Shown piece by piece: positions 8,395 to 58,668 of a stretch of 61,199 nt of DNA. Below the pieces are notes generated by a model. It saw only the letters and a list, made by a program, of their open reading frames with translations. It did not search any database and was not told the origin of the DNA. A program made the translations under genes and the position numbers. The stretch's first letter is position 1. Each line of letters begins with the position of its first letter. The stretch lies in IMG/VR virus record IMGVR_UViG_3300038365_000169. One strand, 5' to 3'. Source of the DNA: an uncultured virus (IMG/VR IMGVR_UViG_3300038365_000169) (taxonomy: Duplodnaviria > Heunggongvirae > Uroviricota > Caudoviricetes).

Positions 8395-8796
8395 CTATCT
8401 GTACTCTGGTTCCTCGGATGACTCGGTGTTGGCAATAATGCTCTTTGCAACTAAACCGGAGTTTACCTCCGAAACGTTCAACCGCTTGACAAACTCAAGC
8501 TTCTGAAGGTGGCTAAGAACAGATGCTTCCTCCTCCACCTTGCTGACATAAAGAATCTCAAACTTTTCTGGGCTTAGCATCTCCAGCTCATGCAGAAGGG
8601 CCTTTGGGTCCTCTACATCGGGTCCGGAGCGCATGCCGTATAGCTTGATTTGGAGCTTTTCTGCAAAATTGCAGGCGACCTGCTCCATCATTTCGCGCTT
8701 GAGCATCAAATTCTCGGGGCAGACAAAATAAAAAATTCTGTCCATCTCTTTGGAAATGGCAACCATTTCGGGGGTCATATTTTTATCGTCCATCAT
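8395..8796 (-). CDS. Hypothetical protein
   Basis: 133-aa ORF with ATGA overlap to upstream gene. Confidence 0.6.
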   Translation of the reverse strand: MMDDKNMTPEMVAISKEMDRIFYFVCPENLMLKREMMEQVACNFAEKLQIKLYGMRSGPDVEDPKALLHELEMLSPEKFEILYVSKVEEEASVLSHLQKLEFVKRLNVSEVNSGLVAKSIIANTESSEEPEYR

Positions 8797-9455
8797 ATTT
8801 CCTCTCCATCCTCATCCTTGTAGTATATGTCTATTGAGCTCTGAGCGATCTCAACTATGTCCCTATCCGCCAACATTTTAGCAAAGGTGGAAATCTCCCC
8901 TCTGTTTAGGTTGACGTCAAAATGCATGACAACAACCTTTTGGTCAAATTTTTTGACGCCATTTCCGCTGCGTATGCCAAAACGAACCTTGGCAAACCCA
9001 AAGTCTAGTATCTTGCTGGCAACCTTAATGTCGCCCTTTTTCTCGCTGTTAAGCGTTATGTCAACACGCACCTCATCTATGAATAGGTCGGTCCCCTCCA
9101 GTGCGTCCTGCCTGCCCGTTGGTCTTTTTATGGTGCCGTCGCCCCATTCCCTGTTGCAGGCGACCTCAAATCGCTCGCACATTTCGTCCTCAAATTGGTC
9201 CCCAAAGGACATTTTCTCGGATAAACGTTTCTTGAGCTGGCGGTACTCAATGTTTGCTGCATGGTTCCTGGTGGTCCTTGCTCTTTTGTCAGCTTTATAT
9301 CCTATGCGCTCGGCAAACTGTCCTTCGCTCTCATTGGCAACCTGATGGTCAACATGGTTGCATCGGCCCTTGCCGATTCTCTCCTCTGATGCGGTGCAGT
9401 AGGTGAGGTGGCCGTCCACAGTTAGGGCTAACCTTTTGCCCACTTTCACCACCAC
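8793..9455 (-). CDS. GKGRCxH-module protein with C-terminal PD-(D/E)XK-like domain
   Basis: N-term LALTVDGHLTYCTASEERIGKGRCNHVDH; C-term FEDEMCERF...EGTDLFIDEVRVDIT. Confidence 0.55.
   Translation of the reverse strand: MVVKVGKRLALTVDGHLTYCTASEERIGKGRCNHVDHQVANESEGQFAERIGYKADKRARTTRNHAANIEYRQLKKRLSEKMSFGDQFEDEMCERFEVACNREWGDGTIKRPTGRQDALEGTDLFIDEVRVDITLNSEKKGDIKVASKILDFGFAKVRFGIRSGNGVKKFDQKVVVMHFDVNLNRGEISTFAKMLADRDIVEIAQSSIDIYYKDEDGEEI
9352..9428 (-). repeat. 77-bp block identical, in inverted orientation, to 61108..61184
   Basis: Base-by-base comparison: reverse complement = gccctaactgtggacggcc...gatgcaaccatgt. Confidence 0.95.
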
Positions 9456-9479: not shown

Positions 9480-10091
9480 TTAAGTGTCATCATGAAATAC
9501 CGTCTTTCTGGCAGCAGCTACATTTATCTCGGGCTTGGCCATGTCCATGAGCCACTGCTCCAAAACAGCTAAAACCTCCAGTAGGGTGTGTCCTGACTTT
9601 CTTTTCACCCGTTCGTCCCATTCGAATGTGCTGGCAACTACATTTTTGCCAAGAGGTAAGCTGATCCATTCGAGCTCAAATATCTTTCCAAGGCCGTTTA
9701 AATAGCGGTACATTTCGGGTAAAGGAGGGTCTAAATCTAGCTTCATGCCGGCTAATTCAATTTTCTCAAGATGGTCCCGTAAGCGTTCCTCCATCTGTAC
9801 GCTCTGCCCTACATATAAGCAGGTTTTCTGCCCCTTGTCCAAACATGCGTAAAGCCCGCACTTGCTTGAATTTTCATTCCCAAATACCCTTTGGATCATC
9901 TTGACGGCATCGTATGCATTTCCCTTGAAGCGTTTGGCGTCTGGCATTAGCTTGAGCCAGGCGTAAATGGGATAGCCGTACATAACAGGTTTGCTGTTGC
10001 TTCCTATGCGGTAGCGCTTGGTGCCGAATATGGCGTGAACTCGATAGGATGGTCTTTTGAATCCGTACCCATCCTTGCGCTCACGCTCCAT
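9480..10091 (-). CDS. GIY-YIG nuclease-family protein
   Basis: CGLYACL...LYVGQSVQMEERLRDH...LEQWLMD..KPEIN. Confidence 0.7.
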   Translation of the reverse strand: MERERKDGYGFKRPSYRVHAIFGTKRYRIGSNSKPVMYGYPIYAWLKLMPDAKRFKGNAYDAVKMIQRVFGNENSSKCGLYACLDKGQKTCLYVGQSVQMEERLRDHLEKIELAGMKLDLDPPLPEMYRYLNGLGKIFELEWISLPLGKNVVASTFEWDERVKRKSGHTLLEVLAVLEQWLMDMAKPEINVAAARKTVFHDDT

Positions 10092-10180
10092 TGGCTTCTA
10101 CCCCTTCATATGCATTTGATTTTTGCATTTAGCTTTCTATATGTTGGCCTCTTTCGAACATCACAGTTCCATCTTATATA

Positions 10181-24497: not shown

Positions 24498-24731
24498 ATG
24501 AACATTGCCCTTGGCCTACTGGTTTTATTATGCGCATGCGCCCTCTTCTATGAAGCTGTCAAGATGATATCCAGCCTGGTGATGGAGGTTGTTGCCAGCC
24601 AGATGGTTCATCGCAGGGTCAAGATGAGCAAGGAGATGTCCCTAAAGTTACTGCTCATATTGGTGGTAATGCCCCTTGTGGTGCGACTGCTAAGGATATC
24701 AGTATCGGTGATTTTCACCGGGTCTTTCTAA
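24498..24731 (+). CDS. Small membrane protein, first gene of plus-strand island
   Basis: Two hydrophobic helices. Confidence 0.6.
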   Translation: MNIALGLLVLLCACALFYEAVKMISSLVMEVVASQMVHRRVKMSKEMSLKLLLILVVMPLVVRLLRISVSVIFTGSF

Positions 24732-24740
24732 GGAGGTGAC

Positions 24741-25139
24741 GTGATGAAGCGCGAGTTTATAGGAACTGTTGCAGACGTTCAAGTTGATGACGAGGTGATG
24801 GGAAGGGACGGCAAATGGCACAAAATCACGGACCTTCTGCCACCATTCATGCCCAAGCTAATGTACAGCGTTCATCTTGAGAACGGATATGTGGAGTGCA
24901 CTGGGGACCATCAATGGAACGTATTTTTAGCCGGAAACAGCCTTGGAAATTTTGACACATCCAACATGCTGGTACTCTTTGAGAGCTTCGAAAAGGGAGA
25001 TTTATGCGTTGGAGTGGCTGACGGACCCGCCCTACTAGGGGTGGAAAGAATTGAGCCCAAGATGAGCTGCTGTCTTGTGGTGGACTCTGAGGACCATCAA
25101 TTCGAGATATTAACACACCAGGGAGGTGATGGCAAATGA
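24741..25139 (+). CDS. Free-standing intein/Hint middle fragment (blocks B and F, class-3 type)
   Basis: TVADVQVDDEVMGRDG, block B CTGDHQW, block F CCLVVDSEDHQF; no block A start, no HN-[CST]; own AGGAGG RBS. Confidence 0.8.
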   Translation: MMKREFIGTVADVQVDDEVMGRDGKWHKITDLLPPFMPKLMYSVHLENGYVECTGDHQWNVFLAGNSLGNFDTSNMLVLFESFEKGDLCVGVADGPALLGVERIEPKMSCCLVVDSEDHQFEILTHQGGDGK

Positions 25140-25387
25140 CGCTCATGGCGGCAACAGCCTGCATTGCATTTATGTTGCCAATGATGGCATATGGGGAGAG
25201 CTTTAGCTTTGCTGTGAATGAGGTGATGTGGGACTTTCCGGAGGGGCCGGCAAAAAGGGCCACCATAATTGCAGCTCAATGTATATTTATGGCAATCATC
25301 TGCATCATCTCAATCTTGACCGTTTGGCCCATGCATTACATCATGTCGTCAAGGCCAACCATAGCTTGGAATGGGTGGTGGTTGTAA
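25136..25387 (+). CDS. Small membrane protein between the intein fragments
   Basis: Hydrophobic; overlaps both neighbours; GGAGG RBS. Confidence 0.55.
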   Translation: MTLMAATACIAFMLPMMAYGESFSFAVNEVMWDFPEGPAKRATIIAAQCIFMAIICIISILTVWPMHYIMSSRPTIAWNGWWL

Positions 25388-25907
25388 AATGACTAGCATG
25401 AATGGAATTCAGGTTCTTAGCATCCTTAGTGAGGGTGATCTTTTGGTCATTAATGCAGAAGGGGAAAAGGTTATATGGTCTCCAGAATATGCTGAAATGA
25501 TGATGTCTGGGGATTTACAATCAGTTTTTACACACAATTGTGGACAACGTTTGGTCTGCGGCAGATTAGGCAGTGTTGCCAGCCGTATGGCTCTTGACGA
25601 CAACCAAGCCACCACCATTGACGGAACCCGAAAGGGTGCTGGGATAGTAAAGAGCCAAGGAGAGGTTACCCACATACAGTACTATTTTGCCACACAAAAA
25701 TGGATAGAGGACTGGTTTGTGGAACGCGGGTTAACCAAGCAGGGCTACCCACCAGACATGGAGAGCAATCCGGACTTTGACCCAGCAAAGATAGACTTTG
25801 GTGAGGATGAGGACATCAAAATATCCAGAAAGAAGACAGACATAGATTTTCACAAGATACACCGTGAGGTGGATCATACACAGGACCAAAGGTTCGAGGA
25901 ACTTTAG
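25371..25907 (+). CDS. Intein C-terminal piece (VFTHN/C) fused to C-terminal subdomain of an FtsK/TcpA-like ATPase
   Basis: THN then Cys+1 (25539-25541); CGQRLVCGRL...SRMALD...KGAGIV...IQYYF aligns with NNIQMSCLLGDF...SSLLFE...KGRGFL...FQAYW of 28979..29869. Confidence 0.75.
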   Translation: MGGGCKMTSMNGIQVLSILSEGDLLVINAEGEKVIWSPEYAEMMMSGDLQSVFTHNCGQRLVCGRLGSVASRMALDDNQATTIDGTRKGAGIVKSQGEVTHIQYYFATQKWIEDWFVERGLTKQGYPPDMESNPDFDPAKIDFGEDEDIKISRKKTDIDFHKIHREVDHTQDQRFEEL

Positions 25908-27793: not shown

Positions 27794-28966
27794 CTACTGC
27801 AGGAGGGCCCAGTCTGGAATGTCCACTATTTTGCCCTCCTGTACAGCCTCGTATATCTTGCCCATGGTGAGTAGCATGGGTTGGCCGTTTATCTCGCACT
27901 GCATGATCTCGTCAAATTGAAAGCTTTGGTCCCCAATTTTGAACCACTCTACGTCCTTCTCTAGGTCATAAATGTCCTGCACGTCAGCTTGCTCCATAAA
28001 CTTGAACCTGTCCATCATTATGGACTGTGCCTGCCCAAGAAGCTCCTCAACGTCAGTCACGGTAAGTGCGACCTTATGCACCCCCTTAACCCTCTCCAGT
28101 CCGCCAAACTCCACCCGCTTTACGTCGCATAGAAGCCCCTGTATTCTGTCCGCAAACCTGGATATATGGCCTATGATGCCGTTTTCAACCACAGATTTGC
28201 CTGATCCTGTGCCGCCAGCCACTATCAGATGGGTGCTAACCAGTGTGTTGACCATCTCCTTGCGCTCCGTTTGGTTGTTTATCTTCCACCCTATGGGGCT
28301 AACAGTCTTTCTTTCGTTGTTAACTGCCTCCCCTAGAGGTATGATGTTCCATGATGTGTCGCTGCTTTTGTCAATGGAGCATCTTTTTGGTATGGCCTGC
28401 TTCTTGGCTATGTTGATGCTGACCGTGTAGCTGTCTATATCTATGTTGTCCAAATAGTAGGTGAAATGCTCACTTTTGTCCGAGATTTCCCTTACAAAGT
28501 CCATCACGTCATTTCTGCTCAAGCTCACGTCATAGTGTATGAACAGGTACTTACCCTTAAAGAAAATGTAGCTACATGACAACCTCTTCTTTGCCAGATC
28601 TCTAACCCACCTATCGAACATGGGAGGCTTCAACCCAACAATGTACACCAGCATCAGCAACGGACCAGTGGTCCAGCATGCCGTTCTGCAGATTCCAGAG
28701 AACGGGTTCAACATGCCCTTTATGGTTTCAAACAAGGGTATAACGCTGGTGCGGGAGAGCAACCTATAGGAGCCAGATGACATGAAGAGCAAGAACAGGC
28801 TGCCGAAAAACAGAATGGAAAGCGCAATGGCCAACCACTTCCAGATTGGGCTATTGGGAATCACTCTGACTTTTTGTTCCCCTATAACTATCTTCTTCCC
28901 CTCACGTTCACGCTTTGCCTCATCCGTTTGAGCTTTGCTTTGCTTGCCAAATAGTTCGTTTGCCAT
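27794..28966 (-). CDS. FtsK/TcpA-like ATPase, N-terminal half (TM + Walker A)
   Basis: 2 TM segments; HLIVAGGTGSGKS; CDVKRVEF; ends before Walker B. Confidence 0.8.
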   Translation of the reverse strand: MANELFGKQSKAQTDEAKREREGKKIVIGEQKVRVIPNSPIWKWLAIALSILFFGSLFLLFMSSGSYRLLSRTSVIPLFETIKGMLNPFSGICRTACWTTGPLLMLVYIVGLKPPMFDRWVRDLAKKRLSCSYIFFKGKYLFIHYDVSLSRNDVMDFVREISDKSEHFTYYLDNIDIDSYTVSINIAKKQAIPKRCSIDKSSDTSWNIIPLGEAVNNERKTVSPIGWKINNQTERKEMVNTLVSTHLIVAGGTGSGKSVVENGIIGHISRFADRIQGLLCDVKRVEFGGLERVKGVHKVALTVTDVEELLGQAQSIMMDRFKFMEQADVQDIYDLEKDVEWFKIGDQSFQFDEIMQCEINGQPMLLTMGKIYEAVQEGKIVDIPDWALLQ

Positions 28967-28978
28967 CTATATCACCCC

Positions 28979-29869
28979 TTATTCCACAATGTCATACCCT
29001 TCGTCCATCGAAGGTTGCTGATCCACAGGTATCTTCACATCCATATTTTTCTTGTTGAGCTTTAATTTGGTGACGGCAACCGGCTGCTCGTCCTGAACTT
29101 GACCGGACATCTTGATGTTAATTTTGCCCAACCTGACCTCAGGTACCCTTTCAACATTCTGCTCGACAAATGGTGCTAGGGTTTCCTCAACCTCTAGCTC
29201 CAAACCTCTTGCCTTTCTGGCCCTGTTCATGGCGGCTATTAGCTCGGCTCTTTCGTCAAGTGGCTCCTGAGGGAGCAGATGCTTGACCGCAGGTTTTTCC
29301 TCCAGTTGATACCCCTGCTCTAACTCTGCATGTTTGACCACCTGCTCCACCTGATGTTGCTTGAAATGCTCTACCTTGTCCTGTCGCTTTTGTTTGACCC
29401 TTTTGGCCTTTTTGCTGTTTGAACTGCTGTTTATTTTAACCTCGGTCTGGCCGCGTTCAAGAAAGTCCTTCTTTCTCTCCGTCCAGTATGCTTGAAACTC
29501 ATGTATGTCCTTGCCGCTCTTTAGAAAACCGCGCCCCTTTATCTCAGGCTTGGACAGACTGGACATGTCCTTCTCAAATAATAAGGAGCTTGCGCCAGCG
29601 TCAAAATCTCCCAAAAGACAGCTCATCTGTATGTTGTTCTTCAGGTCAGCATTTATGACGTTGGATGAGGGTCTTTGCGTTGCTAAGCATAAGGATACAC
29701 CTGCCGCTCGACCAAGCCTTGCTATGCTGCCAAGGGAGCTCTGTATGGAGTTAACAAGCTTGAAGTTTGAATCATTCATTACCTCTGAAAGTTCGTCCAC
29801 CAGCACAACAACCGCCTTGGGCCTGTAGGCTGCCACATGCTTGCTGATGCTGTCCTTGGATATTCGCAC
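28979..29869 (-). CDS. FtsK/TcpA-like ATPase, C-terminal half (Walker B onward)
   Basis: VVVLVDEL, IARLGRAAGVSLCLATQRP, KGRG; disordered tail. Confidence 0.82.
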   Translation of the reverse strand: MRISKDSISKHVAAYRPKAVVVLVDELSEVMNDSNFKLVNSIQSSLGSIARLGRAAGVSLCLATQRPSSNVINADLKNNIQMSCLLGDFDAGASSLLFEKDMSSLSKPEIKGRGFLKSGKDIHEFQAYWTERKKDFLERGQTEVKINSSSNSKKAKRVKQKRQDKVEHFKQHQVEQVVKHAELEQGYQLEEKPAVKHLLPQEPLDERAELIAAMNRARKARGLELEVEETLAPFVEQNVERVPEVRLGKINIKMSGQVQDEQPVAVTKLKLNKKNMDVKIPVDQQPSMDEGYDIVE

Positions 29870-30109: not shown

Positions 30110-31612
30110 CTATACCTCACCCTCAGACCTTTGCTCCAAGATGCTGAGCAGGCCGAAAAGTGAGTCCTTGGTCGGCAGTATCGCAACCGTCTCCCTATGG
30201 CGGGGTAACCGGGTGTTAACCTCCAAGTTGGCGTCAATGGAGCGGTCCACTACAGGAATGATGGATTCGCTGTTGAAGCCATAGAAGGAGCATGCGTCCC
30301 CGTCATGGTCAGCATTGTATGCCTTGCAGTAAAGTGGATGGATCTCAGCAGAAGCTCCCTTGCTGACCCTAGGTATGAAGCTTTGAAATGAGCTTTGGTG
30401 CAACGATGGCTGCCTGTTCATGGCAACCCTAAGATGGCCAATTCTGCGCTCTAAATCCTTTCTGGCTGGCTCGGTTACTTGATTTTGAGGTACCCTGAAC
30501 TGCTCCATCCATTGGTCTATCTGCTCCATGCTTCTTCCCTCCGCGGAAAGCTGCTTTAATATGGTGGGTCGGTATATGTCAACCGCCATGGATGGTGGAA
30601 TGGCAACCTCTCCAAACTTTAGGTCCGCGTTAGGTGTGATGACAGCTCGTCCGCTGTAGGGGATGCTGGACCCGGACAGTACAGCCCTAAATACGCCGCC
30701 CTTACCGGCAAATTCGTCCGCTAATGACATGTTTCTGTATCCGTTGCTGAACCTGGCATAGTTGTCGCCAAGCTTGGCGTTGTTTAAAAGTGCGTCATAT
30801 GCTAGCTGCTGTCGGTCTGGATTGGCATGCTGCCTGAGCATATACTTATAGCCAACGGTGATGTCACTGGAGACCACATCCTCACGTTCGCCAATAGGGC
30901 TGCCATCCCCAGCAGAGCTGTCAACCTCCGTGTGGTCAGAAATGCCCATTCTCATGTAGTATGGAAGAACATATACATGCTTGGTTGCCTCAAAGTTGAA
31001 CTTTTCATGCGCAAACCTGTTCATGGCAACCACACCAGTTTCAACCTTTACTGACTCCTCCCAGCCCTCTGGATAGCCGTCACGTTCGTATTCCTCTATC
31101 TTTTCCTTGCTGAAAGCTCTGCCAACCTTGAATCGATTTAAGTTGCTCTCCGTTACTAAAAATACGTCCCCATGAAGCATGCCGTTTATGGTCTTGTATG
31201 GCATGCCGGATAGCTGGCTGAAGTAGTTTTTGTCCATGTCATTCCACAAAGGTTCCTCCAGCTCCATGTATCCGCCATCCATATTTTGGTCCAGCTGCAT
31301 GCGGTTTTCAATCTTAACAAGATCCTTGAGCTCCTCGTCACTCATCCTGTATGGTTTGCTCTCTATGGTGGTTCCCTCATAGGGTATGAATCCGTCAACA
31401 TCAACCGCATCATCACCAGGTAGGTTGCTGGATAACCTCTCCTGCAGAAGCTCAACCCTGCTCACAAACTCCTGAGGCGTTTCCCCCTCATATTGGTGCT
31501 CAATATGATTGCAACGACCCTTACCGCGAAGTTCGGGTGGGCAAGTGCAATAGGTCATATTGCCGTTTACATTTAGGGCTAGAACCTTTGTTACCCTTGT
31601 GGCTGCGCCCAT
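30110..31612 (-). CDS. RNA polymerase beta-prime (RpoC)-like catalytic fragment with N-terminal GKGRCxH module
   Basis: GKGGVFR..LSG....YSGRAVI, NRQPSLH, IHPLYCKAYNADHDGD (30296-30316); ends about 60 aa after the motif. Confidence 0.88.
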   Translation of the reverse strand: MGAATRVTKVLALNVNGNMTYCTCPPELRGKGRCNHIEHQYEGETPQEFVSRVELLQERLSSNLPGDDAVDVDGFIPYEGTTIESKPYRMSDEELKDLVKIENRMQLDQNMDGGYMELEEPLWNDMDKNYFSQLSGMPYKTINGMLHGDVFLVTESNLNRFKVGRAFSKEKIEEYERDGYPEGWEESVKVETGVVAMNRFAHEKFNFEATKHVYVLPYYMRMGISDHTEVDSSAGDGSPIGEREDVVSSDITVGYKYMLRQHANPDRQQLAYDALLNNAKLGDNYARFSNGYRNMSLADEFAGKGGVFRAVLSGSSIPYSGRAVITPNADLKFGEVAIPPSMAVDIYRPTILKQLSAEGRSMEQIDQWMEQFRVPQNQVTEPARKDLERRIGHLRVAMNRQPSLHQSSFQSFIPRVSKGASAEIHPLYCKAYNADHDGDACSFYGFNSESIIPVVDRSIDANLEVNTRLPRHRETVAILPTKDSLFGLLSILEQRSEGEV

Positions 31613-31695: not shown

Positions 31696-34032
31696 TTATT
31701 TGACGATTTCGAATAAATCGTCATCATTTGCGACAGGTTTGGAGTATACTGAGTTAAGGGTGGTGGTGTCACCAACTATCATTATGCCCTTGTCATCATC
31801 CACTCGACCCTCATCCTTGACCAACGGTAGGTCCGGTTCAAGCTCTAAAATTTCCTCCATTGAAAGTATGGCGTCAGGACCGGCATAGTTGGGTGCGAAG
31901 AAGTCTGGAACCTCCGGAAGAACCGCTGTGCCAATCTTCTCCTTCTCGATGAGGTCACCATGTAGGCCCTGCAGCTGCATCTCGCTGTGCAAGAAACGTG
32001 CAGAGTCATTTAATCTGATCTCTTTGCCGCCTATTTTGACCATTTCTCCCTCTACCCTTGATACCTCACGACGTACGCCAGCTAACCCGTAGTCAGCCTT
32101 TACCCCCTTTGCCATGTATTCAGGAAGCATGTCGTCATACCTTTCAAACGATAGGTTCTTTAGTTGGTTCTGTTTCAATACCTTGCCCTTTTTGACCATC
32201 TTTAGCATTTTCTTGCCAAGGCCAGCTTGGTCCAAAACATCCATTGAATCCGCCCATAAAAGCTTCCAAAGGTCCTTTTTGCCGTAGTTTACCAAAAGTG
32301 ATAATGTGTAGTCAGAATGGTCAGGCACCTGGGTGCCGCTGCTGTCACACATGGCAATCTGGCTGACGTCTGCAGGCACGGGGCCAACTGCAACCCTAAA
32401 GTCTATGTTATCACGCAGTGAGAGGGGAAATGTCTTGCCGCTTACCTTTAAGCTGGAGAACACCACATGCACGTTAACAGACTTGCCATACTTGGTGATG
32501 GTCTCCATGGCAATTTTGATTTCATTGACCATTACGCCCTTGCTTACGCTGCCTCCAACTATGCCCTGCATTTCGTCATCATCAACAGCTGCTTTTTCGT
32601 CCGTTTCAATTAGCTTTTCGTAGTCCGTTACAACAAAAACAACGGGAGGCAGGCTCATCTCCCCGCCTAACTGTATTACATTCTGGGTGGCAATCTCCCA
32701 GTGGTTGGGTATGCGAAAACGCTTGTCACCCTCAAGTACGACCTCCATGCCGGGTTGGATGTCCTGTGCAACTATGTCCTTTTCGTCGCCAGCAATTCTG
32801 ACGTGAACACGTTCATTTGCGCCCAGTATGTGGTTGTTTAATGCCACCCGTGTGCCAAGGTTTATTACACCGGACAGCGGCAGGGACTGTATGTTTAGCT
32901 TCTTTAATGCATTATACCTTTGGGTCATCATGTATAGCAAACGCTTTACAACCTCATATGATTCTGAGACATTCCTTGCAATGTACTTTATCTGTGGTGC
33001 AGATTCCAATGCGTCAAACTGTGGGTTCTGATTCTGGTTGTCAATATATACTTCCACCCCGCCCTTCATGACCATGTGCCCAATGATGGACTTGAGTATG
33101 CTGTTCCTCTGGTCTTCATTCTGACCGACCACCATGGCCATTGATGCGGACTTGTTGGCCCTGATAAATTCATTTGACTGAAGTTCCTTTGTGCGGAGCA
33201 GGTCTGAAAATGTCATGTCATGACTTGGCTTGAGGTACTTGGGGTCCTTGACAGCTTTTTTGTTCCTTTTGAGTGCAAGGTCAAACGTTTGCTCCTCAAA
33301 TTGGGGCGTCTCATGCAGCTTAAGAACGTACATGCTGTTGGTCTTTGATGCCAAAGTTACGTCGCTTATAACACCAAGAGGTACCACATACCATGGAAGG
33401 AAATTAGAGATGCCAAGCAGTGACTTCCACTCCACATGCTCGTCAAAATGTAAGCATGCAGTTAAGGTATACCATTTGCCGTCCCTCATGCCGTCCCATA
33501 GATACTCAGGAAATGCATTCTCTAAAGATTCAATTAGGACCTCATATTGCTGCCTGTTGGCAGTGGCAGACATGCGAAATCGAAAAACATGCATTAGAAC
33601 AGGCACGATCTTTCCTGACTTTCTTAGCGGTGATAAGCTGTGCACCACCGGTCGTCTTTCCTTTTTGTCAGGAGAAACCTCATTGTTGCCAGAACCGTTG
33701 AATACCTCACGAAATGCAACCATTTCGTCTGGAATGTTCATAAGGGTTACTCCAGCTTCATATATGATCCCCTTTACCTTGGATATATGCCCCCTTTGGT
33801 ATACTAGATAGCTGACAGCCATAAACATCCAGTTCAGAGCATGAACCATCAGAAGTACATAAAGATGCACGGGAATGAATAGGGTTGCCACCGCTAGGGC
33901 AACCGTTACACCAAAGAAAATCCAATGCATTCTTACGTTTCGCTTGACATAGAGCTTGTTCTCTAGCATGAAGCGATATATTACGGCGACCATCAGCGTG
34001 GCCACAACCAGGGCAATGTTTATAGCGTTCAT
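31696..34032 (-). CDS. FtsK/TcpA-like membrane protein with degenerate ATPase motifs
   Basis: 3 TM segments; Walker A position reads GQNEDQRNS; VVFVVTDYE; KYGKSVNVHVV; LRDNIDFRVAVG. Confidence 0.65.
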   Translation of the reverse strand: MNAINIALVVATLMVAVIYRFMLENKLYVKRNVRMHWIFFGVTVALAVATLFIPVHLYVLLMVHALNWMFMAVSYLVYQRGHISKVKGIIYEAGVTLMNIPDEMVAFREVFNGSGNNEVSPDKKERRPVVHSLSPLRKSGKIVPVLMHVFRFRMSATANRQQYEVLIESLENAFPEYLWDGMRDGKWYTLTACLHFDEHVEWKSLLGISNFLPWYVVPLGVISDVTLASKTNSMYVLKLHETPQFEEQTFDLALKRNKKAVKDPKYLKPSHDMTFSDLLRTKELQSNEFIRANKSASMAMVVGQNEDQRNSILKSIIGHMVMKGGVEVYIDNQNQNPQFDALESAPQIKYIARNVSESYEVVKRLLYMMTQRYNALKKLNIQSLPLSGVINLGTRVALNNHILGANERVHVRIAGDEKDIVAQDIQPGMEVVLEGDKRFRIPNHWEIATQNVIQLGGEMSLPPVVFVVTDYEKLIETDEKAAVDDDEMQGIVGGSVSKGVMVNEIKIAMETITKYGKSVNVHVVFSSLKVSGKTFPLSLRDNIDFRVAVGPVPADVSQIAMCDSSGTQVPDHSDYTLSLLVNYGKKDLWKLLWADSMDVLDQAGLGKKMLKMVKKGKVLKQNQLKNLSFERYDDMLPEYMAKGVKADYGLAGVRREVSRVEGEMVKIGGKEIRLNDSARFLHSEMQLQGLHGDLIEKEKIGTAVLPEVPDFFAPNYAGPDAILSMEEILELEPDLPLVKDEGRVDDDKGIMIVGDTTTLNSVYSKPVANDDDLFEIVK

Positions 34033-52365: not shown

Positions 52366-52656
52366 TTAGCCCTCCATGTTAAGGAAGTTTACAATCCTTT
52401 CCACCTGCTCGTCCTTCAACTTGCCAAGATTGCTGAAAAACTCCATAATGGTTTCCTTCTGGGACTGTATGGTGATGCTGGACGGCTGGTTTTCAATCTG
52501 TACCTCGTACATGCCGCGCTGCAGCTTCCTTAGCTCCATGGCTGAGCCGCCCTCGTCCCCAAGAATATGGCAGCACCTTCCCTTGCCAACAAGTTCGTCA
52601 GGGGAGGAGCACTCGCTGTATCCTCCGTCCTTTCTGGGTCTGATCATGGTGGTCAT
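52366..52656 (-). CDS. Small protein carrying the GKGRCxH module
   Basis: DGGYSECSSPDELVGKGRCCH; GGAGG RBS. Confidence 0.7.
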   Translation of the reverse strand: MTTMIRPRKDGGYSECSSPDELVGKGRCCHILGDEGGSAMELRKLQRGMYEVQIENQPSSITIQSQKETIMEFFSNLGKLKDEQVERIVNFLNMEG

Positions 52657-52728: not shown

Positions 52729-53178
52729 TTATACCGCAGCAAAAATGGAGCTAACTCCGTTGTCCTCCATCAAAAATGATATGAAATGAACATTTTCCTC
52801 CCGTAGCTCCTTGAAGCTGTAGTCCCTGTTCTCCAGGGTGCGCATGGCAAACTTTTTTACGCACTTTCCCTGATTTTTTTCCTTCTCGAGCCACTTCCTG
52901 CGGAACTCAAGATCTGCTGTCCTTTGGGCCTCAAGCAGAAGCATGTATTCGTCCAAAGTTTTGAAATGGATGTTCACCGCATCGGGGTGCTGACCGTCGC
53001 CTATACGCACGATAAGGTCCGAAATATACTCGTAAACAATAAGGTCCTGCTTGTTGCTATTGGTGATTTCAACTGGTGTGTTCACTGCGTAGGCAAACAC
53101 CCATTTCCCCCCATCATACCTTAATGAATGGATCTCGCAGCTGGGAATGGGTAGGTCATACTCCAATATTTGAAACAA
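52729..53178 (-). CDS. Hypothetical protein
   Basis: TTG start with GGAGG RBS. Confidence 0.6.
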   Translation of the reverse strand: MFQILEYDLPIPSCEIHSLRYDGGKWVFAYAVNTPVEITNSNKQDLIVYEYISDLIVRIGDGQHPDAVNIHFKTLDEYMLLLEAQRTADLEFRRKWLEKEKNQGKCVKKFAMRTLENRDYSFKELREENVHFISFLMEDNGVSSIFAAV

Positions 53179-53199
53179 AACCCTCTCACCTCCCTTCCA

Positions 53200-53844
53200 T
53201 CATTGCCATTTCATGCCAAGCAGCTCCTTGCTGGTTTTGCCGCTGGTGTCCATGTCTGGTAGTATCTCAAGCTCGCCGACAGAGGTGAATCGGAATTTCC
53301 CCGCACATACCTTTTTGTTAAGCATGGTGCTTTGCTTGCTTCCCCTGGCCCTTTCTATGGTTAGAAGCCATTTGTCGCGTTGGTCCAATGGTGTGCCGGA
53401 CCTCTGGAAAAGGGCCTCCAGGTCCTCAACCTCCTGAACCTCCTCCAACTCGTCCCGCTGGGGTAATGGCTGCTGCCTTTGAATTTGCCCCTCTTGTTCA
53501 ACTGAGGAAACTAATTGTGATTTTTCAACGTTTTCCTGATTTTTCTTTCTGCCAAGATTTAACCTTAAGGATTTGCCCACATGCTGCTCGGGTTGGCCCT
53601 GCAGCTCAACATGTTTTTGGGGTAATGGCTGCTGCTTTGGTTGCTCGGGTTCAACACCCTTTACCACAACCCGCTCCACAGTGCGCCTTAGGCCCATCTC
53701 CTTGGCGCGGAGCTCGTCCTCTGTGAGTGTCTGTTCATTTTCCTGGTTGAGAACCCTTTGCTCTACCATCTGCTGGTTCACTTGCTTCTTTATTTTGCCG
53801 TCATCAGAAAAGCTTTCTAAAAACTCTCCAAGCTTGGAACCCAT
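53200..53844 (-). CDS. Hypothetical Q/E-rich protein
   Basis: 214-aa ORF with RBS; QQPLPQ twice. Confidence 0.6.
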   Translation of the reverse strand: MGSKLGEFLESFSDDGKIKKQVNQQMVEQRVLNQENEQTLTEDELRAKEMGLRRTVERVVVKGVEPEQPKQQPLPQKHVELQGQPEQHVGKSLRLNLGRKKNQENVEKSQLVSSVEQEGQIQRQQPLPQRDELEEVQEVEDLEALFQRSGTPLDQRDKWLLTIERARGSKQSTMLNKKVCAGKFRFTSVGELEILPDMDTSGKTSKELLGMKWQ

Positions 53845-53856
53845 AGCTTCACCTCC

Positions 53857-54750
53857 CTACTTGATAAATATGAACCACACTAAAAATAGGTTTACACCCG
53901 TTAGTATGAAGTTAAGAATAATGTTCACCGTGCCGCCCGTCGTGATGGCAAATTTGCCGCCAAATAGGTACGGTTTCCACCACATTCTGAAACCGATGCC
54001 CCTTCTGGTTTTTACCGGCGTGGGTATGGGAAAGAACAACGGTGCACTACCCTTGGTAAGCAAGTCACCAATGATATGAAACAGGTAACCCAACGATATG
54101 GCCGTACCAATCAACTTAAGCTGAGACAAGGGCATTCTCCACATGCTCCATATGGACAGCACCAGGAAGAGCCAGCAGAAGATCTGAGTGGACCTTTGTC
54201 TTCTCAAGAGACTCAACACCTTGTAGAAGAACATGGAAGCACCCAGGTAAACACTTATGGCACCCAAGAAGATCATGGTATAAACGGATGCCGGCACAGA
54301 GGTCCAACCCATGGATGCCGGCGATGCATTTGATGACGGATATGCGAACCAATTAAAGGCAAATATCACAACAGCAACAAATGGTGCATGAAAGAACATG
54401 CGGTGCTGGCTGGGCGGTTTCTCGTCATGCTTGGTGTGCATGATGTTCCAAATTACCCCTGATATAACCACGGCTACAATCGAAAGGCCCTGGCCAAGAA
54501 ATCCGAGCTGGTACACCGCCGTGGAGCCTCCCTCCTGCAACGGGGAGGAGTCCAGATCCGGCAGCAATGACGCTCCCCCTATGACCAAAAAGACCATAAA
54601 GGCAAAGATCCAGCTCTGCATGATGGCGCTAACGTAGCTCTGAGCCATGGCGATTGGGGTCAACCAGATGAGGAAGAACAGCATCAATGCGATCAGCCAG
54701 TGGGTAAAACCGCTAAATCCCGCATGTTCCGACATAAGCAACCTACGCAT
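53857..54750 (-). CDS. Membrane-bound metal-dependent hydrolase (YdjM family)
   Basis: GFTH, GASLLPDLD, HRMFFH, GYLFHIIGDLLT..G.PLFFP. Confidence 0.8.
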   Translation of the reverse strand: MRRLLMSEHAGFSGFTHWLIALMLFFLIWLTPIAMAQSYVSAIMQSWIFAFMVFLVIGGASLLPDLDSSPLQEGGSTAVYQLGFLGQGLSIVAVVISGVIWNIMHTKHDEKPPSQHRMFFHAPFVAVVIFAFNWFAYPSSNASPASMGWTSVPASVYTMIFLGAISVYLGASMFFYKVLSLLRRQRSTQIFCWLFLVLSIWSMWRMPLSQLKLIGTAISLGYLFHIIGDLLTKGSAPLFFPIPTPVKTRRGIGFRMWWKPYLFGGKFAITTGGTVNIILNFILTGVNLFLVWFIFIK

Positions 54751-54790
54751 TTGCGTTCACCTCCTTAACATTAAATGGGTTTTAGTCAAA

Positions 54791-55786
54791 TTACTGTAGC
54801 ATTGACTCCAGCTCCTTGACCGTTACAATTTTGACCTCGCCGTCGGGTGTTTTGACCTCCAGCTGGTCGGTGTCCTTCATCCTGTGGTTGAATATCATGA
54901 CCTCATCCGTTGGGCACTGTGGTCTGAAGTCCTTTATGTCGTTTAGGCCCAGCTTGGCCATTTCCCTGTTTCGTGCGTACATGCACTCCCTCATGACCCT
55001 TAGTATCTCGGCGCACTCACGAACGTTGTTCGCCACCGCCACAACATTTTTCTTGCCCTTGTATGACTCAAACTCTGTAACCTTTAGGTCCACCAAAGCT
55101 ACAGCGATCTCCTCGCCGTGGGTCAAGCAGTGCAGTATGATGTTTCTCAGTGTGACTGAGTTATGATGCATTAGGTCGCATGTTTCAAACCTATGATCGT
55201 TTGTTTCCACGCAGAAAACCCTCCTGTCACCCAGGCATTTGCCGGATAAAACGGCATGCCCGTTGCACAGAAGCTCCTCACCCATATGGGCTAGATCGAC
55301 CACCAAACGCACGGGGAGCCAGAATTCAACCTCTGATACCTTTGAGGGGTCTGACTCCACCGCGACATCACGTATCTCCATGGGTGCTAGACGCTTCATG
55401 CCCTCGAGTGCTACTGCACCCTCAACCTTAACTAGACCGATTTGGCCAAAAAGAGCGTTTAACTCGCCATGCGTCATGGTGCCCTTAAGAACCTCGTCTA
55501 AATTGCTGTAGTATGCATGCCTGTCCATAAGAGTGGGGATCTCATACCCGGTGAAGTTGTCTCGAACCCATTGCTTGCCGGCTAAGGTCATCTTGGATAT
55601 GTCAATCAGAAGCAGGTGGTCCTCCGATAGAACGCAGGATTTTTTGCCGTACTCGGTGATAAAGCCGGACCTCTTGCGGTACTTGATTTCGTAGCAGACA
55701 GCCGTGTATTCCACATGTCGACGCACAACAGTGGACCCGTTGGAAAATTTGTCCCCCACCTCCACCTCTGACCATTTCTTTAGCAA
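54791..55786 (-). CDS. Large C-type split-intein fragment (55160..55786) fused to the post-Walker-A segment of an FtsK/TcpA-like ATPase
   Basis: Starts KKWSEVEVGD (no block A start); block B LSEDHLL; block F/G VFCVETNDHRFETCDLMHHN, then S+1 VTLRNII...VDLKVTEF...RECMYARN. Confidence 0.85.
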   Translation of the reverse strand: MLKKWSEVEVGDKFSNGSTVVRRHVEYTAVCYEIKYRKRSGFITEYGKKSCVLSEDHLLLIDISKMTLAGKQWVRDNFTGYEIPTLMDRHAYYSNLDEVLKGTMTHGELNALFGQIGLVKVEGAVALEGMKRLAPMEIRDVAVESDPSKVSEVEFWLPVRLVVDLAHMGEELLCNGHAVLSGKCLGDRRVFCVETNDHRFETCDLMHHNSVTLRNIILHCLTHGEEIAVALVDLKVTEFESYKGKKNVVAVANNVRECAEILRVMRECMYARNREMAKLGLNDIKDFRPQCPTDEVMIFNHRMKDTDQLEVKTPDGEVKIVTVKELESMLQ

Positions 55787-55812
55787 GCTCTATTCACCTC
55801 CAATGCTTCTTT

Positions 55813-55968
55813 TTAATGCGTTGCCATGATGGCCACCCTTATACCATCCGGCTCAGGGATGTGATCGAAGGGGGTTGGTTTTGAGCGCCCCATGAACCAA
55901 AAGGCTGTGGCCAACACAATCGCAGTGATAGCAACAGTTAAAATTGCTATTGATGTGGATTTTCTCAA
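55813..55968 (-). CDS. Small membrane/exported peptide (51 aa), not in ORF track
   Basis: GGAGG RBS + TTG; MRKSTSIAILTVAITAIVLATAFWF... Confidence 0.5.
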   Translation of the reverse strand: MRKSTSIAILTVAITAIVLATAFWFMGRSKPTPFDHIPEPDGIRVAIMATH

Positions 55969-55990
55969 GATAAACCCTCCTGTAGGGGAA

Positions 55991-56022
55991 TGGAGCCTGA
56001 AGATTTACGTCTTCACGCTCCA
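55991..56022. terminator. Stem-loop, probable terminator
   Basis: tggagc-c-tgaaga / tcttca-c-gctcca inverted repeat after the stop at 56057. Confidence 0.45.
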
Positions 56023-56056
56023 ATGCCTATTTTTGGCGCTTTAATGCCCATTAGCG

Positions 56057-56521
56057 CTAGTCCTGCTCTATGACGCTCTCCTGCTGGTGCGGCCTGACCC
56101 AGGAGTTTAATGACGTTCTGAACTCCCCAAACTGAACGACAGCATTTCTTCCGTCCCAGTAAACATAGCATTCGTTGCATTGGTCGCTGCCGGATATCAG
56201 ACCGGCATTTCTCAGCATGGTGTTGTATTCGGCCAATGGGTTGTATGGATGGTTGGTAAGGGGAAGGTTGCCCGTATAATTTCCTGCTGGTATCCTTACG
56301 TTGTCCATGTAGCTGTTAACCGCCACATTTATGCTGGAGATGTAGGCAAGATTGTCCGCCATGGCCACCGCCTGTGAATCCCACGATAACCTCACAGAGG
56401 CGAACAGTATGAAGGAGCAGATTACCATGGTGGTGATGAAGTATAGACCGCCAATGCCGCGATGCTCCTGACGCAAGCATCCAAGCAGTGGTGCTTGATC
56501 TGGTCCAGCCAGCGTACCCAT
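56057..56521 (-). CDS. Pseudopilin/TadE-G-like protein (start uncertain)
   Basis: QEHRG followed by hydrophobic helix; directly downstream of Flp pilin. Confidence 0.5.
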   Translation of the reverse strand: MGTLAGPDQAPLLGCLRQEHRGIGGLYFITTMVICSFILFASVRLSWDSQAVAMADNLAYISSINVAVNSYMDNVRIPAGNYTGNLPLTNHPYNPLAEYNTMLRNAGLISGSDQCNECYVYWDGRNAVVQFGEFRTSLNSWVRPHQQESVIEQD

Positions 56522-56742
56522 TACGGTGCGCCTGTGCCCAGCGGGTTCTGCCCGTTGTTCTGAATGAACAATGCGATCTCCTGTGCCTTCTTTACCACTT
56601 CGTCAGCGAGAAAGCCCCAGGCCGTAAAGATGGCTACAGCCATGATCACCAAAATGATGACGTACTCGAACGCCACTGCACCCTGATGCTCCTCTACGAG
56701 CTCCCTTTGGACCTCCTGTGCAATTCTTTTGATCCTGAACAT
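56521..56742 (-). CDS. Flp family type IVb pilin
   Basis: HQG/AVAFEYVIILVIMAVAI (G-x4-EY Flp motif), 73 aa. Confidence 0.8.
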   Translation of the reverse strand: MFRIKRIAQEVQRELVEEHQGAVAFEYVIILVIMAVAIFTAWGFLADEVVKKAQEIALFIQNNGQNPLGTGAP

Positions 56743-56856
56743 GCTTGGTTTCCCTCCCTTTCTGAGGCATTATTTTAATGCTACCAATTTTGTCTCCATA
56801 TGGCCATGAATCTGGGATTCATAACTATTATATAGTAAAGCCTCTAATGCGGCCTA

Positions 56857-57477
56857 TCATCGCCTGCCTGCTATATATTCAACCGTTCTCTGGTGGTCCC
56901 TCTGCTCCTGTGTGACCGGCTGAAAGTAGTTTCTGTTCCAGTACACGCTCCTGGTGTCCCATGCCCTTTGCGCCTCCAGTAGCTCCCTGTTTAGCTTGCC
57001 CTCCACCTGCAGAGCGGTAACCCTTACCTGCAGGTCCAGCCACTGGCAGATCACCTTGGACCTCTTGTCCAATGAGAATAGATGCAGCGGGTGGAACTCC
57101 TCTGCGTCCCACGGTAGGTTTTTGACCCTGTCAAGATCCATCTGGTGCATGCGTATCTCGTAGCCGACGTCAAGCGTCTCATGAACGTCCAAACACACCA
57201 GCCACCTCCTGCGGGCCCTTCTGCCCCAAAGCTCCCATATGCCGGAAAGCCCCTCCACCTGGTCGGGTCTGTATGGGTCGACCACCAAGTTCATGGGTTC
57301 AACCGCCACCAGCTCGGGGTTGGGCCTGCTGTAGTACAGCGCCCTGTTCCACCTGGATGGCTCTGGTACGTAAAATGGGTCCTCAACGCCAAAGTTCTTC
57401 TGGTTCTTGGGGCCGACGAACAGTGACTGATATTCGCCCTCCATGTTGCACATCACCGTCCCCTCTAAAAAGGCCAA
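56857..57477 (-). CDS. Hypothetical protein
   Basis: Long ORF; start uncertain. Confidence 0.5.
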   Translation of the reverse strand: MAFLEGTVMCNMEGEYQSLFVGPKNQKNFGVEDPFYVPEPSRWNRALYYSRPNPELVAVEPMNLVVDPYRPDQVEGLSGIWELWGRRARRRWLVCLDVHETLDVGYEIRMHQMDLDRVKNLPWDAEEFHPLHLFSLDKRSKVICQWLDLQVRVTALQVEGKLNRELLEAQRAWDTRSVYWNRNYFQPVTQEQRDHQRTVEYIAGRR

Positions 57478-57525
57478 ATAAAATGACCATGAATTTTATG
57501 ATTTTTCTGCAGCTTACCCCTGCCT

Positions 57526-58098
57526 TTAGATGCTGGCGCCGGGAGGTAAAATGGGGTACTCCAGCTCGGTGCAGAACTCCCTGTTGCCGGCCCATTTGTT
57601 CATCCACTCGGCCACCACAAACCTCTCGCTGCATAGCTTGGCGGGTACCTCAAACCCCAGAAGCACCAGGGTGACCTCCAGCGATCCGCCCTCAGCCTCA
57701 TGCGCGATGCCGTCCAAATGCAACCTTTTGTCCGCCCTGAGCAGGATGTCGTCCAAGGTTCTCTCCACGCTGTAGACCTCCAGCTGCTTGCGGTAGGCCC
57801 TAAGGTACCTGCACTCCATGTTATAATAGGTGGGGTCCTCCGCATGGATCTTGGCGCAGCTCTCGCAGTCCAAGGACGGCTCATAGGACCTGGGCACCAA
57901 CGGAGGGTAGCGCAAGCCCGTGTACCATTTGGGGTCCCACTTGCAGATGCTCACCGGCACCCAGCTTGTGTGCGCCCCCATGAACCTGACCTGGTAGAAG
58001 TAGGAGGTACGAATGAACACACGGATACCACGCCATCTGTACCAAGCATCCATGGTTGCACCTCCCAACTTAGATTTTGCAGTAAACCAATGGGTCAA
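57526..58098 (-). CDS. DUF488-like protein
   Basis: IRTSYF...VSICKWDPKWY...VLLGFE.P...CSERFVVAEW. Confidence 0.5.
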   Translation of the reverse strand: MTHWFTAKSKLGGATMDAWYRWRGIRVFIRTSYFYQVRFMGAHTSWVPVSICKWDPKWYTGLRYPPLVPRSYEPSLDCESCAKIHAEDPTYYNMECRYLRAYRKQLEVYSVERTLDDILLRADKRLHLDGIAHEAEGGSLEVTLVLLGFEVPAKLCSERFVVAEWMNKWAGNREFCTELEYPILPPGASI

Positions 58099-58668
58099 AA
58101 TTTAATGCATAAAGGGCATGGTTAAGCTCCTTGTCGCAGTAAATCTTCACCCAAAGGCCAACGAACCCTAACCCACCAATGATGAAGTACATCCCGTCAA
58201 GATGCACTGGACGCTACCCGTTGGGTTATCCTGCACATTTCTTCCCGCACCCCTGTATGGCCTTGCCCTTTGCGTTTCCTAAAGCTACTGCCTACAGGTG
58301 GAGCGTCTTCGGTTCGGCCATCCATGGGTCGCTTCTGCCCTTGCCCTGGTGGGGTCACTGGCGTTCGCTTCCCTTCCCTGGCCTCTTGCACTTGAACATG
58401 CCTAATGCATTTATATATTAGTGGTTAAATGGGTCAACATGGGTCACTCCGTCATCTGCGGTTTCGTCGCCCTTGCCCTTTGCACTTGGGGGTATGGTCA
58501 GGGCTCCTTCACGCAGATGATGGAGATCGTCTAAACATTTTAATGATTTAAATCACCCGTTCATGTGGTCAACCGCTTCTACCGCTCATTTTACCTGGTT
58601 AACGTAGGACTACCAAAATCATCATGCGAATTCCCATAATGATAGTTCTAACATCAGATATGATTGGC

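Follow-up and report, generated by a model that had tools for sequence, protein, structure and literature searches.

The open reading frame at 54791..55786 (minus strand, 331 aa, TTG start) of the window, the 61,199-nt stretch of DNA analysed here, is quite likely piece B of an FtsK/TcpA-like ATPase that a conjugative-type element of ~123 kb would encode in four pieces and join by trans-splicing as proposed below. With rather less assurance, though still as the likely arrangement, we suggest that this ATPase is made from four dispersed polypeptides via nucleophile-less inteins with N-fragments of 9-17 aa, and that one or both of these inteins are naturally three-piece with a free catalytic middle, which would act as a trans-acting ligase for a pair of short peptide tags and would gate the transfer motor's assembly in the manner of a multi-input AND. 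If so, a three-piece intein would be seen in nature for the first time, and so would an atypical split in a class 3-type intein.

An intein fragment ends at the Walker A serine of an FtsK-type ATPase

The ribosome-binding site of the gene, GGAGGTG (55795..55801, minus strand), lies 8 nt before the TTG, and an in-frame TAG two codons upstream of the TTG (55792..55790, minus strand) closes the frame; these features and the coordinates agree with a preliminary description made from the sequence. The first 209 aa (IntC; 55160..55786, minus strand) form an intein without its first ~12 residues, with Trp5, the block B His57 (55618..55616), the block F4 Cys192 (55213..55211) and His208-Asn209, as well as an insertion of ~90 aa at the position usual for an endonuclease. 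They end in His-His-Asn, and SVTLRNII follows as the start of the C-extein, the 122-aa host part of piece B (54794..55159, minus strand), whose Ser+1 is the Ser of the Walker A GK-S. The preliminary description had aligned this junction with the sequence after GSGK in the paralogue at 27794..28966, and the BLASTP alignment (pairwise E 6e-5; 31% over 78 aa) indeed starts exactly at Ser210, opposite the Ser that follows GSGK. That paralogue was its intein-free control; closer controls are the orthologues P0126, P0128-P0131, L005 and L006, intein-free alleles with a continuous GGGK-SVTLRN, showing that the intein interrupts a host motif.

Pfam FtsK_SpoIIIE (PF01580) spans residues 210-300 at 29.5 bits, above the cut-off of 24, and the Walker A motif lies in P0134, the candidate partner described below; the intein part was recognised by neither Pfam nor NCBIfam. 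The C-extein contains FtsK core strands and a helix, followed by a small inserted beta domain of which the first half is present, and the frame ends before Walker B, a point absent from the preliminary description. Joining to an upstream Walker A by stop read-through or frameshift was ruled out, there being no such motif upstream. We also ruled out that the C-terminal 45 aa are another IntN, since they align with the insert of the contiguous orthologue L005, to which piece B is related at 38% over 117 aa.

An AlphaFold2 model of piece B, built from a 43-row alignment, reached a pLDDT of 83.9. Its best VIA-align match was 6bs8, a class 3 DnaB intein (Z 12.2, rmsd 1.5 over 103 residues), followed by 6riy (Z 11.9); all 50 rows shown were Hint proteins, and hedgehog and gp41-1 tie with the class 3 DnaB inteins within 1 Z unit. 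Foldseek ranked the same folds first, none at E <= 0.001. Residue 1 of the model falls on residue 13 of the class 3 DnaB inteins, so that ~12 residues are missing, and Hint domains are matched only from their residue 13-17 on, in keeping with the earlier claim that the first intein strands are absent.

The homologue search, over lengths of 182-580, gave 70 proteins including the query itself (33-71% identity in the 43-row alignment). W5, H57, C192, H208, N209 and S210 are kept in all 70, at most 16 residues precede Trp5 in 65 of them, and none has a Walker A motif. Hint fold, block B His, terminal His-Asn and Ser at +1 together identify an intein; the gene is real and conserved, and the intein is most likely active. 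A length-free profile search listed 120 matches, and among the 79 inspected there was one contiguous FtsK form, P0282 (the same as L046), a contiguous gene with the same type of tail sequence followed by the same intein; a single-sequence fold of this L046 intein gave a pLDDT of only 30. The piece B alignment had no match in GTDB, nor was there any in the plasmid and phage searches, and in viral contigs neither the single piece B protein nor the piece A alignment found a match. The same intein clade, often N-truncated, occurs also in contiguous form, in RNA polymerase beta-prime-like and TadA-like proteins (P0301, P0303, P0319, P0321, P0342, P0343, P0353 and others), and there are suggestions of many further atypically split inteins in these elements.

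A candidate partner ends in Walker A and a short IntN

The preliminary description had predicted a partner outside the window that ends in a P-loop and a short IntN, and had named failure to find such a gene as grounds for rejecting its reading. Genes of this kind were found, encoding a membrane-anchored N-terminal piece that ends in Walker A GGGK, a short tail and a stop. In L038 a 272-aa gene ends in GSTGGGK plus 11 residues starting with Ser and lies upstream of Flp, a pilin-like gene and piece B, and in L042 a matching gene, with an 11-aa tail starting with Ala, shares one contig with piece B. The L038 protein used as query returned 61 N-piece homologues, 55 of which end in GGGK, a tail of 9-23 aa (9-17 aa in 54) and a stop; the first residue of these 55 tails is Ser in 35, Ala in 19 and Asp in one, and never Cys. 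Among the others five are intein-free with GGGK-SVTLRN and one is truncated. The N-extein and a short IntN are thus encoded by a separate gene, as expected of an atypically split intein.

For this element we point to the cluster P0100/P0134, which ends in GGGK-AIWVDQMVDVL, an 11-aa tail with Ala at position 1. P0134 occurs on three contigs, the longest of 123,228, and the same value is found for the window proteins P0141, P0144, P0152 and P0386, while the longest contig of P0100 (123,431) is that of sister copies of window proteins. P0134 is therefore likely this element's partner, encoded in that half of the ~123-kb element which the window does not cover. In the window P0134 had no tblastn match, and none of the six frames shows a Walker A with a short intein-like tail behind it, which upholds the claim that the partner lies outside. 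The replicon search that had been advised thus places a TM-FtsK partner on the same contig in L038 and L042, and for this element only through shared longest-contig values; in tables compared by eye 13 pairs of A and B homologues share the same size of longest contig.

A complex model of P0134 residues 225-271 with piece B residues 1-290 scored 0.73 against 0.00 for the best of three controls, passing a mark that 116 of 157 solved pairs and 2 of 215 mismatched pairs also reach; since similar split-intein complexes have already been solved, the predictor may simply have learnt the answer, and the pass shows likeness, not binding, and the model cannot separate close cousins. At least 59% of the contacts are shared between runs, with a partner pLDDT of at least 44, and tail residues 257-271 touch piece B at residues 1-6, 51-58, 188-192 and 202-211 (blocks B, F and G). 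In this model the IntN would complete the IntC fold, with 11 tail residues for the ~12 that are missing.

Splicing is probably of a class 3 type

Ala1 cannot start class 1 splicing because residue 1 lacks a nucleophile. The operational definition of class 3, no Cys1 and a Cys at block F4, as given in the accessible text of PMC7891396, fits this intein, with F4 read from motif spacing. The other two residues of the WCT signature are absent: B12 is Leu in 68 of 70 homologues in place of Trp, and G5 is His in 68 and Ser or Asn in two in place of Thr. A quick tree built from the N pieces requires 11 and 13 changes for the Ser and Ala labels of residue 1, at least 9 being forced by starred branches. 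Repeated Ala/Ser swaps at position 1 combined with an invariant Cys192 point to class 3-type splicing, and judged from sequence the intein is probably of this type without being a canonical class 3 member. The available portion of PMC5222942 describes the class 3 route as attack of the block F4 Cys on the N-junction, transfer to Ser+1 and Asn cyclisation. By analogy, piece A, consisting of a membrane anchor, Walker A GGGK and an 11-aa IntN starting with Ala, would bind piece B, as modelled, and supply the missing first strands; Cys192, aided by His57, would attack the Lys-Ala bond, the N-extein would move to Ser210, Asn209 would cyclise with His208, and an O-to-N shift would yield a continuous P-loop, GGGK-S. 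The preliminary reading of a split intein with a partner thus stands, and was incomplete in its chemistry, which the Ala1 tail makes probably class 3-type.

Trans-splicing might instead proceed outside class 3, by direct attack of Ser+1 (class 2) in the Ala1 copies and by class 1 chemistry in the Ser1 copies, with Cys192 assisting. Class 1 chemistry is indeed possible for the 35 of 55 tails that begin with Ser, WCT is incomplete, and class 2 is defined by the absent nucleophile at residue 1, as stated in the part of PMC5222942 at hand, so that Ala1 agrees with class 2 of the KlbA type; the invariant F4 Cys and Ser+1 argue against that class, however, Ser+1 being a class 3 trait that in the tested class 3 inteins could not start splicing (same text). 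Five other Cys of this copy vary among homologues and residue 1 flips repeatedly, whereas Cys192 is invariant in all 70, and the top structural matches are of class 3, even if they share their rank with others. We consider this alternative unlikely.

Still less probable, to our minds, is that the halves bind or cleave without ligation, as a docking clasp or a protease, with a P-loop that is never made covalent and an ATPase that either functions in this state or is dead. Non-covalent assembly does seem tolerated, as the same protein has an intein-free split between pieces B and C; an unspliced intein would nevertheless separate the Lys and Ser of Walker A, a motif that is continuous in the intein-free orthologues, and the residues required at both junctions (H57, C192, H208, N209, S210) are all invariant.

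It is very unlikely that P0134 is not the partner or lies on another replicon, or that the pieces are joined at the DNA or RNA level before translation. Contig values are an indirect linkage and close cousins could pass the model equally well, yet A and B are paired on the same contig in L038, in L042 and in the complete relatives G001-G005. Joining of nucleic acids would make the kept intein chemistry pointless, and a separate start and stop belong to every piece; across 53000-58500 four runs showed no DNA joint, and a contig of run X4 covers this interval with 30 substitutions and no indel or joint. That the gene is a decayed remnant of a contiguous intein gene, as the preliminary description had feared should homologues prove contiguous, or an assembly artefact, can practically be dismissed: the contiguous L046/P0282 exists, but all 70 homologues are split at one place with catalytic residues intact, and independent contigs agree without indels and vary mostly at synonymous sites (4 of the 5 strain substitutions within the frame). 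Class 3-type trans-splicing with P0134 accordingly remains our preferred reading.

The ATPase is probably divided into four pieces and carries a second intein

The two-part protein of the preliminary description also proved incomplete, since the ATPase is in four pieces. The contiguous orthologue L005 has 629 aa, and piece B stops in its small inserted domain, before Walker B, where there is no intein. A tblastn search with L005 exposed two further genes in the window. The first (24744..25139, plus strand) encodes IntM, which stands alone as the middle of another class 3 intein in this ATPase and shows the block B HQW and block F Cys but neither a first strand nor a terminal His-Asn; it has a ribosome-binding site, AGGAGGTG, and is 37-41% identical to the IntM genes of G001 and G004. 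The second (25389..25907, plus strand) encodes piece D, the last intein strand ending in FTHN (Asn at 25536..25538) followed by the C-terminal part of the ATPase from Cys+1 (25539..25541); its start codon is uncertain, 25371, 25389 and 25398 each being called in public sets. Aligned to L005, the second intein (24744..25541) has a complete WCT, IntM supplying HQW together with the block F Cys and piece D supplying THN. Both genes sit in a small plus-strand island (24498..25907) within an otherwise minus-strand region, with a short membrane-protein ORF between them.

Piece C, the Walker B piece, would supply the first strand of this intein. Among the best 120 of 315 matches, 92 of the Walker B pieces listed end in Asn-Pro plus 11-37 aa, which is the second intein's first strand, and this element's own piece C with its IntN was not found among those 120. 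A GTDB scan with piece C gave matches mostly limited to the Walker B region, which we took as ordinary FtsK genes. Piece B would probably meet piece C without an intein, through the split beta domain, and piece C would be joined to piece D by the class 3 intein, predicted from sequence to be three-piece in this element with 24744..25139 as its middle. The motor would then be active only when five dispersed genes are expressed.

This ATPase has further intein sites. In P0066 a terminal tail of 13 aa, led by Pro, follows FKG, in P0329 and P0331 an intein lies just ahead of the C-terminal split, and P0310 also has a further site. In L008-L012, P0085, P0091, P0112 and P0127 a contiguous Pro-led intein lies within Walker A and precedes the split intein by five residues, giving two inteins in one P-loop.

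Complete relatives keep all six genes apart

Five records of 250-467 kb, G001-G005, are rated complete, four of them having terminal repeats. The genes for A, B, C, D and two free intein middles are separate in all five, spread over about 73 kb in G002. Here the Walker A intein is three-piece as well, with an N fragment of 9-15 aa (Ala first in four, Ser in one), a middle of 190-196 aa and a C fragment of 11-15 aa in four relatives and of 33 aa in G001, a different second cut. The second intein's three fragments are all present in G001 and G002; G003-G005 have matches to the three genes, and the N tail was read only in G003.

Piece B is clean in G001 and carries in-frame stops or inserts in G002-G005, so that the three-piece inteins of four of the five complete relatives may sit in broken genes. 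Conserved genes of G002-G005 contain short inserts opening with TAG immediately behind a codon (piece B of L002, L003, L004 and L007, near 10040-10130; piece D of L093, L094 and L095, near 1500-1560), and at four of seven first-stop sites the same or a synonymous codon 3-21 nt further on restores the conserved reading, two sites having a small hairpin. T4 gene 60 is a case of programmed ribosomal bypassing, and by this analogy the inserts resemble bypassing rather than decay.

The element is more likely conjugative than a phage

Upstream of piece B lie a pilin-like gene (56057..56521, minus strand) and a Flp pilin gene (56521..56742, minus strand; a weak Flp_Fap match, E 0.002), a pair that also precedes piece B in L038, L039, L041 and L042. 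Other window genes are TcpC-, TcpE-, VirB4- and TadA/PilT-like or encode RecA, NAD ligase and an RNA polymerase fragment, and G001 and G002 share the transfer genes. Neither 50 window proteins nor 110 large ORFs of G001 gave a capsid or portal match, a search that small or divergent genes could escape, and matches with a terminase label belong to ATPases that bear inteins or are of VirB4/TadA type. Although labelled viral, the element is more likely a large conjugative one than a phage. G001 has replication, transcription and conjugation-type genes and many endonucleases, and G001-G005, likewise labelled viral, are possibly an undescribed class of giant conjugative elements. Samples that carry the window's element are fermentation metagenomes and unspecified metagenomes from three studies.

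A second FtsK paralogue (27794..29869, minus strand) has no inteins and consists of two genes in permuted order, Walker A at 27794..28966 and Walker B in the upstream gene at 28979..29869, cut in the same inserted domain as piece B. A third FtsK-like paralogue (31696..34032) is contiguous, with 778 aa, no recognisable Walker A and no Pfam match. Nearby is a stand-alone RNA polymerase beta-prime fragment (30110..31612) with an N-terminal motif that by eye resembles those of 8793..9455 and 52366..52656.

The TcpA of pCW3 is an FtsK/SpoIIIE coupling protein of Gram-positive conjugation. From this knowledge and the neighbouring genes we infer that the ATPase is a conjugative coupling protein. Like TcpA/FtsK-SpoIIIE coupling proteins it has an N-terminal membrane anchor and an FtsK-type ATPase, with TcpC-, TcpE- and VirB4-like genes in the window; unlike TcpA it comes in four scattered pieces and with three paralogues, has Flp and TadA/PilT-like genes nearby, and its transfer role is putative.

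Comparison with known inteins

Cat, VidaL and AceL-TerL are atypically split inteins. The present intein resembles the PolB16 OarG type in its natural split near the N-terminus, short IntN and long IntC. PolB16 OarG has an IntN of 15 aa, called the shortest characterised one, an IntC of 168 aa, Ser1 and Ser+1 (accessible text of PMC10189870). Here, in contrast, the IntN has 11 aa (9-17 aa in 54 of 55 homologues), Ala and Ser are interchangeable at residue 1, the block F Cys is invariant, the host is an FtsK P-loop and the halves lie far apart.

Similar in chemistry is AceL NrdHF, the first class 3 intein of split form, which splices by class 3 (this and the following as far as the available text of PMC7891396 goes). 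Both have Ala1, a Cys at C2:4 and Ser+1, lack the Trp of WCT and are naturally split. AceL NrdHF is divided at the usual site into 98 + 48 aa, the two parts being separated by an endonuclease gene, and retains the Thr; in the present intein the cut comes after 11 residues, G5 is His and the penultimate His is still in place. In that text no other split form is given among 1701 class 3 inteins. The contiguous Mycobacterium DnaB class 3 inteins (6bs8, 6riy) are the best structural matches, being single-chain and 17-18% identical. The second intein is like contiguous class 3 inteins in its full W, C and T and in relatives that begin with Pro; its Cys+1 is described as rare in class 3 in the available part of PMC5222942.

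Three-piece inteins have been engineered from Ssp and Rma DnaB, Npu DnaE and gp41-1, and the arrangement is called unproved in nature in the available text of bioRxiv 10.1101/2023.01.30.526203. Ours are alike in having N, M and C fragments with M free; those are artificial, and here the fragments are predicted from genes of the window and of all five complete relatives. The seen part of a 2025 phage intein survey does not mention FtsK, and a literature search over mostly freely available main texts found nothing on a split intein in FtsK or on three-piece inteins in nature.

Implications

Natural split inteins with very small N-fragments are valued as a means of attaching synthetic peptides to proteins, and the shortest IntN characterised has 15 aa, as the available text of PMC10189870 puts it. 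The family described here gives 55 natural N-fragments, mostly of 9-17 aa and without a catalytic side chain, plus matching C-fragments, and it unites two rarities, an atypical split and class 3-type chemistry, that we did not find together in print. With the second intein here and both inteins in the relatives, natural three-piece inteins become directly testable. The free middle fragment suggests a ready-made ligase for two tags of ~11 residues, a predicted property. Read from its genes, this case would show the stepwise scattering of a gene across a replicon with its function kept.
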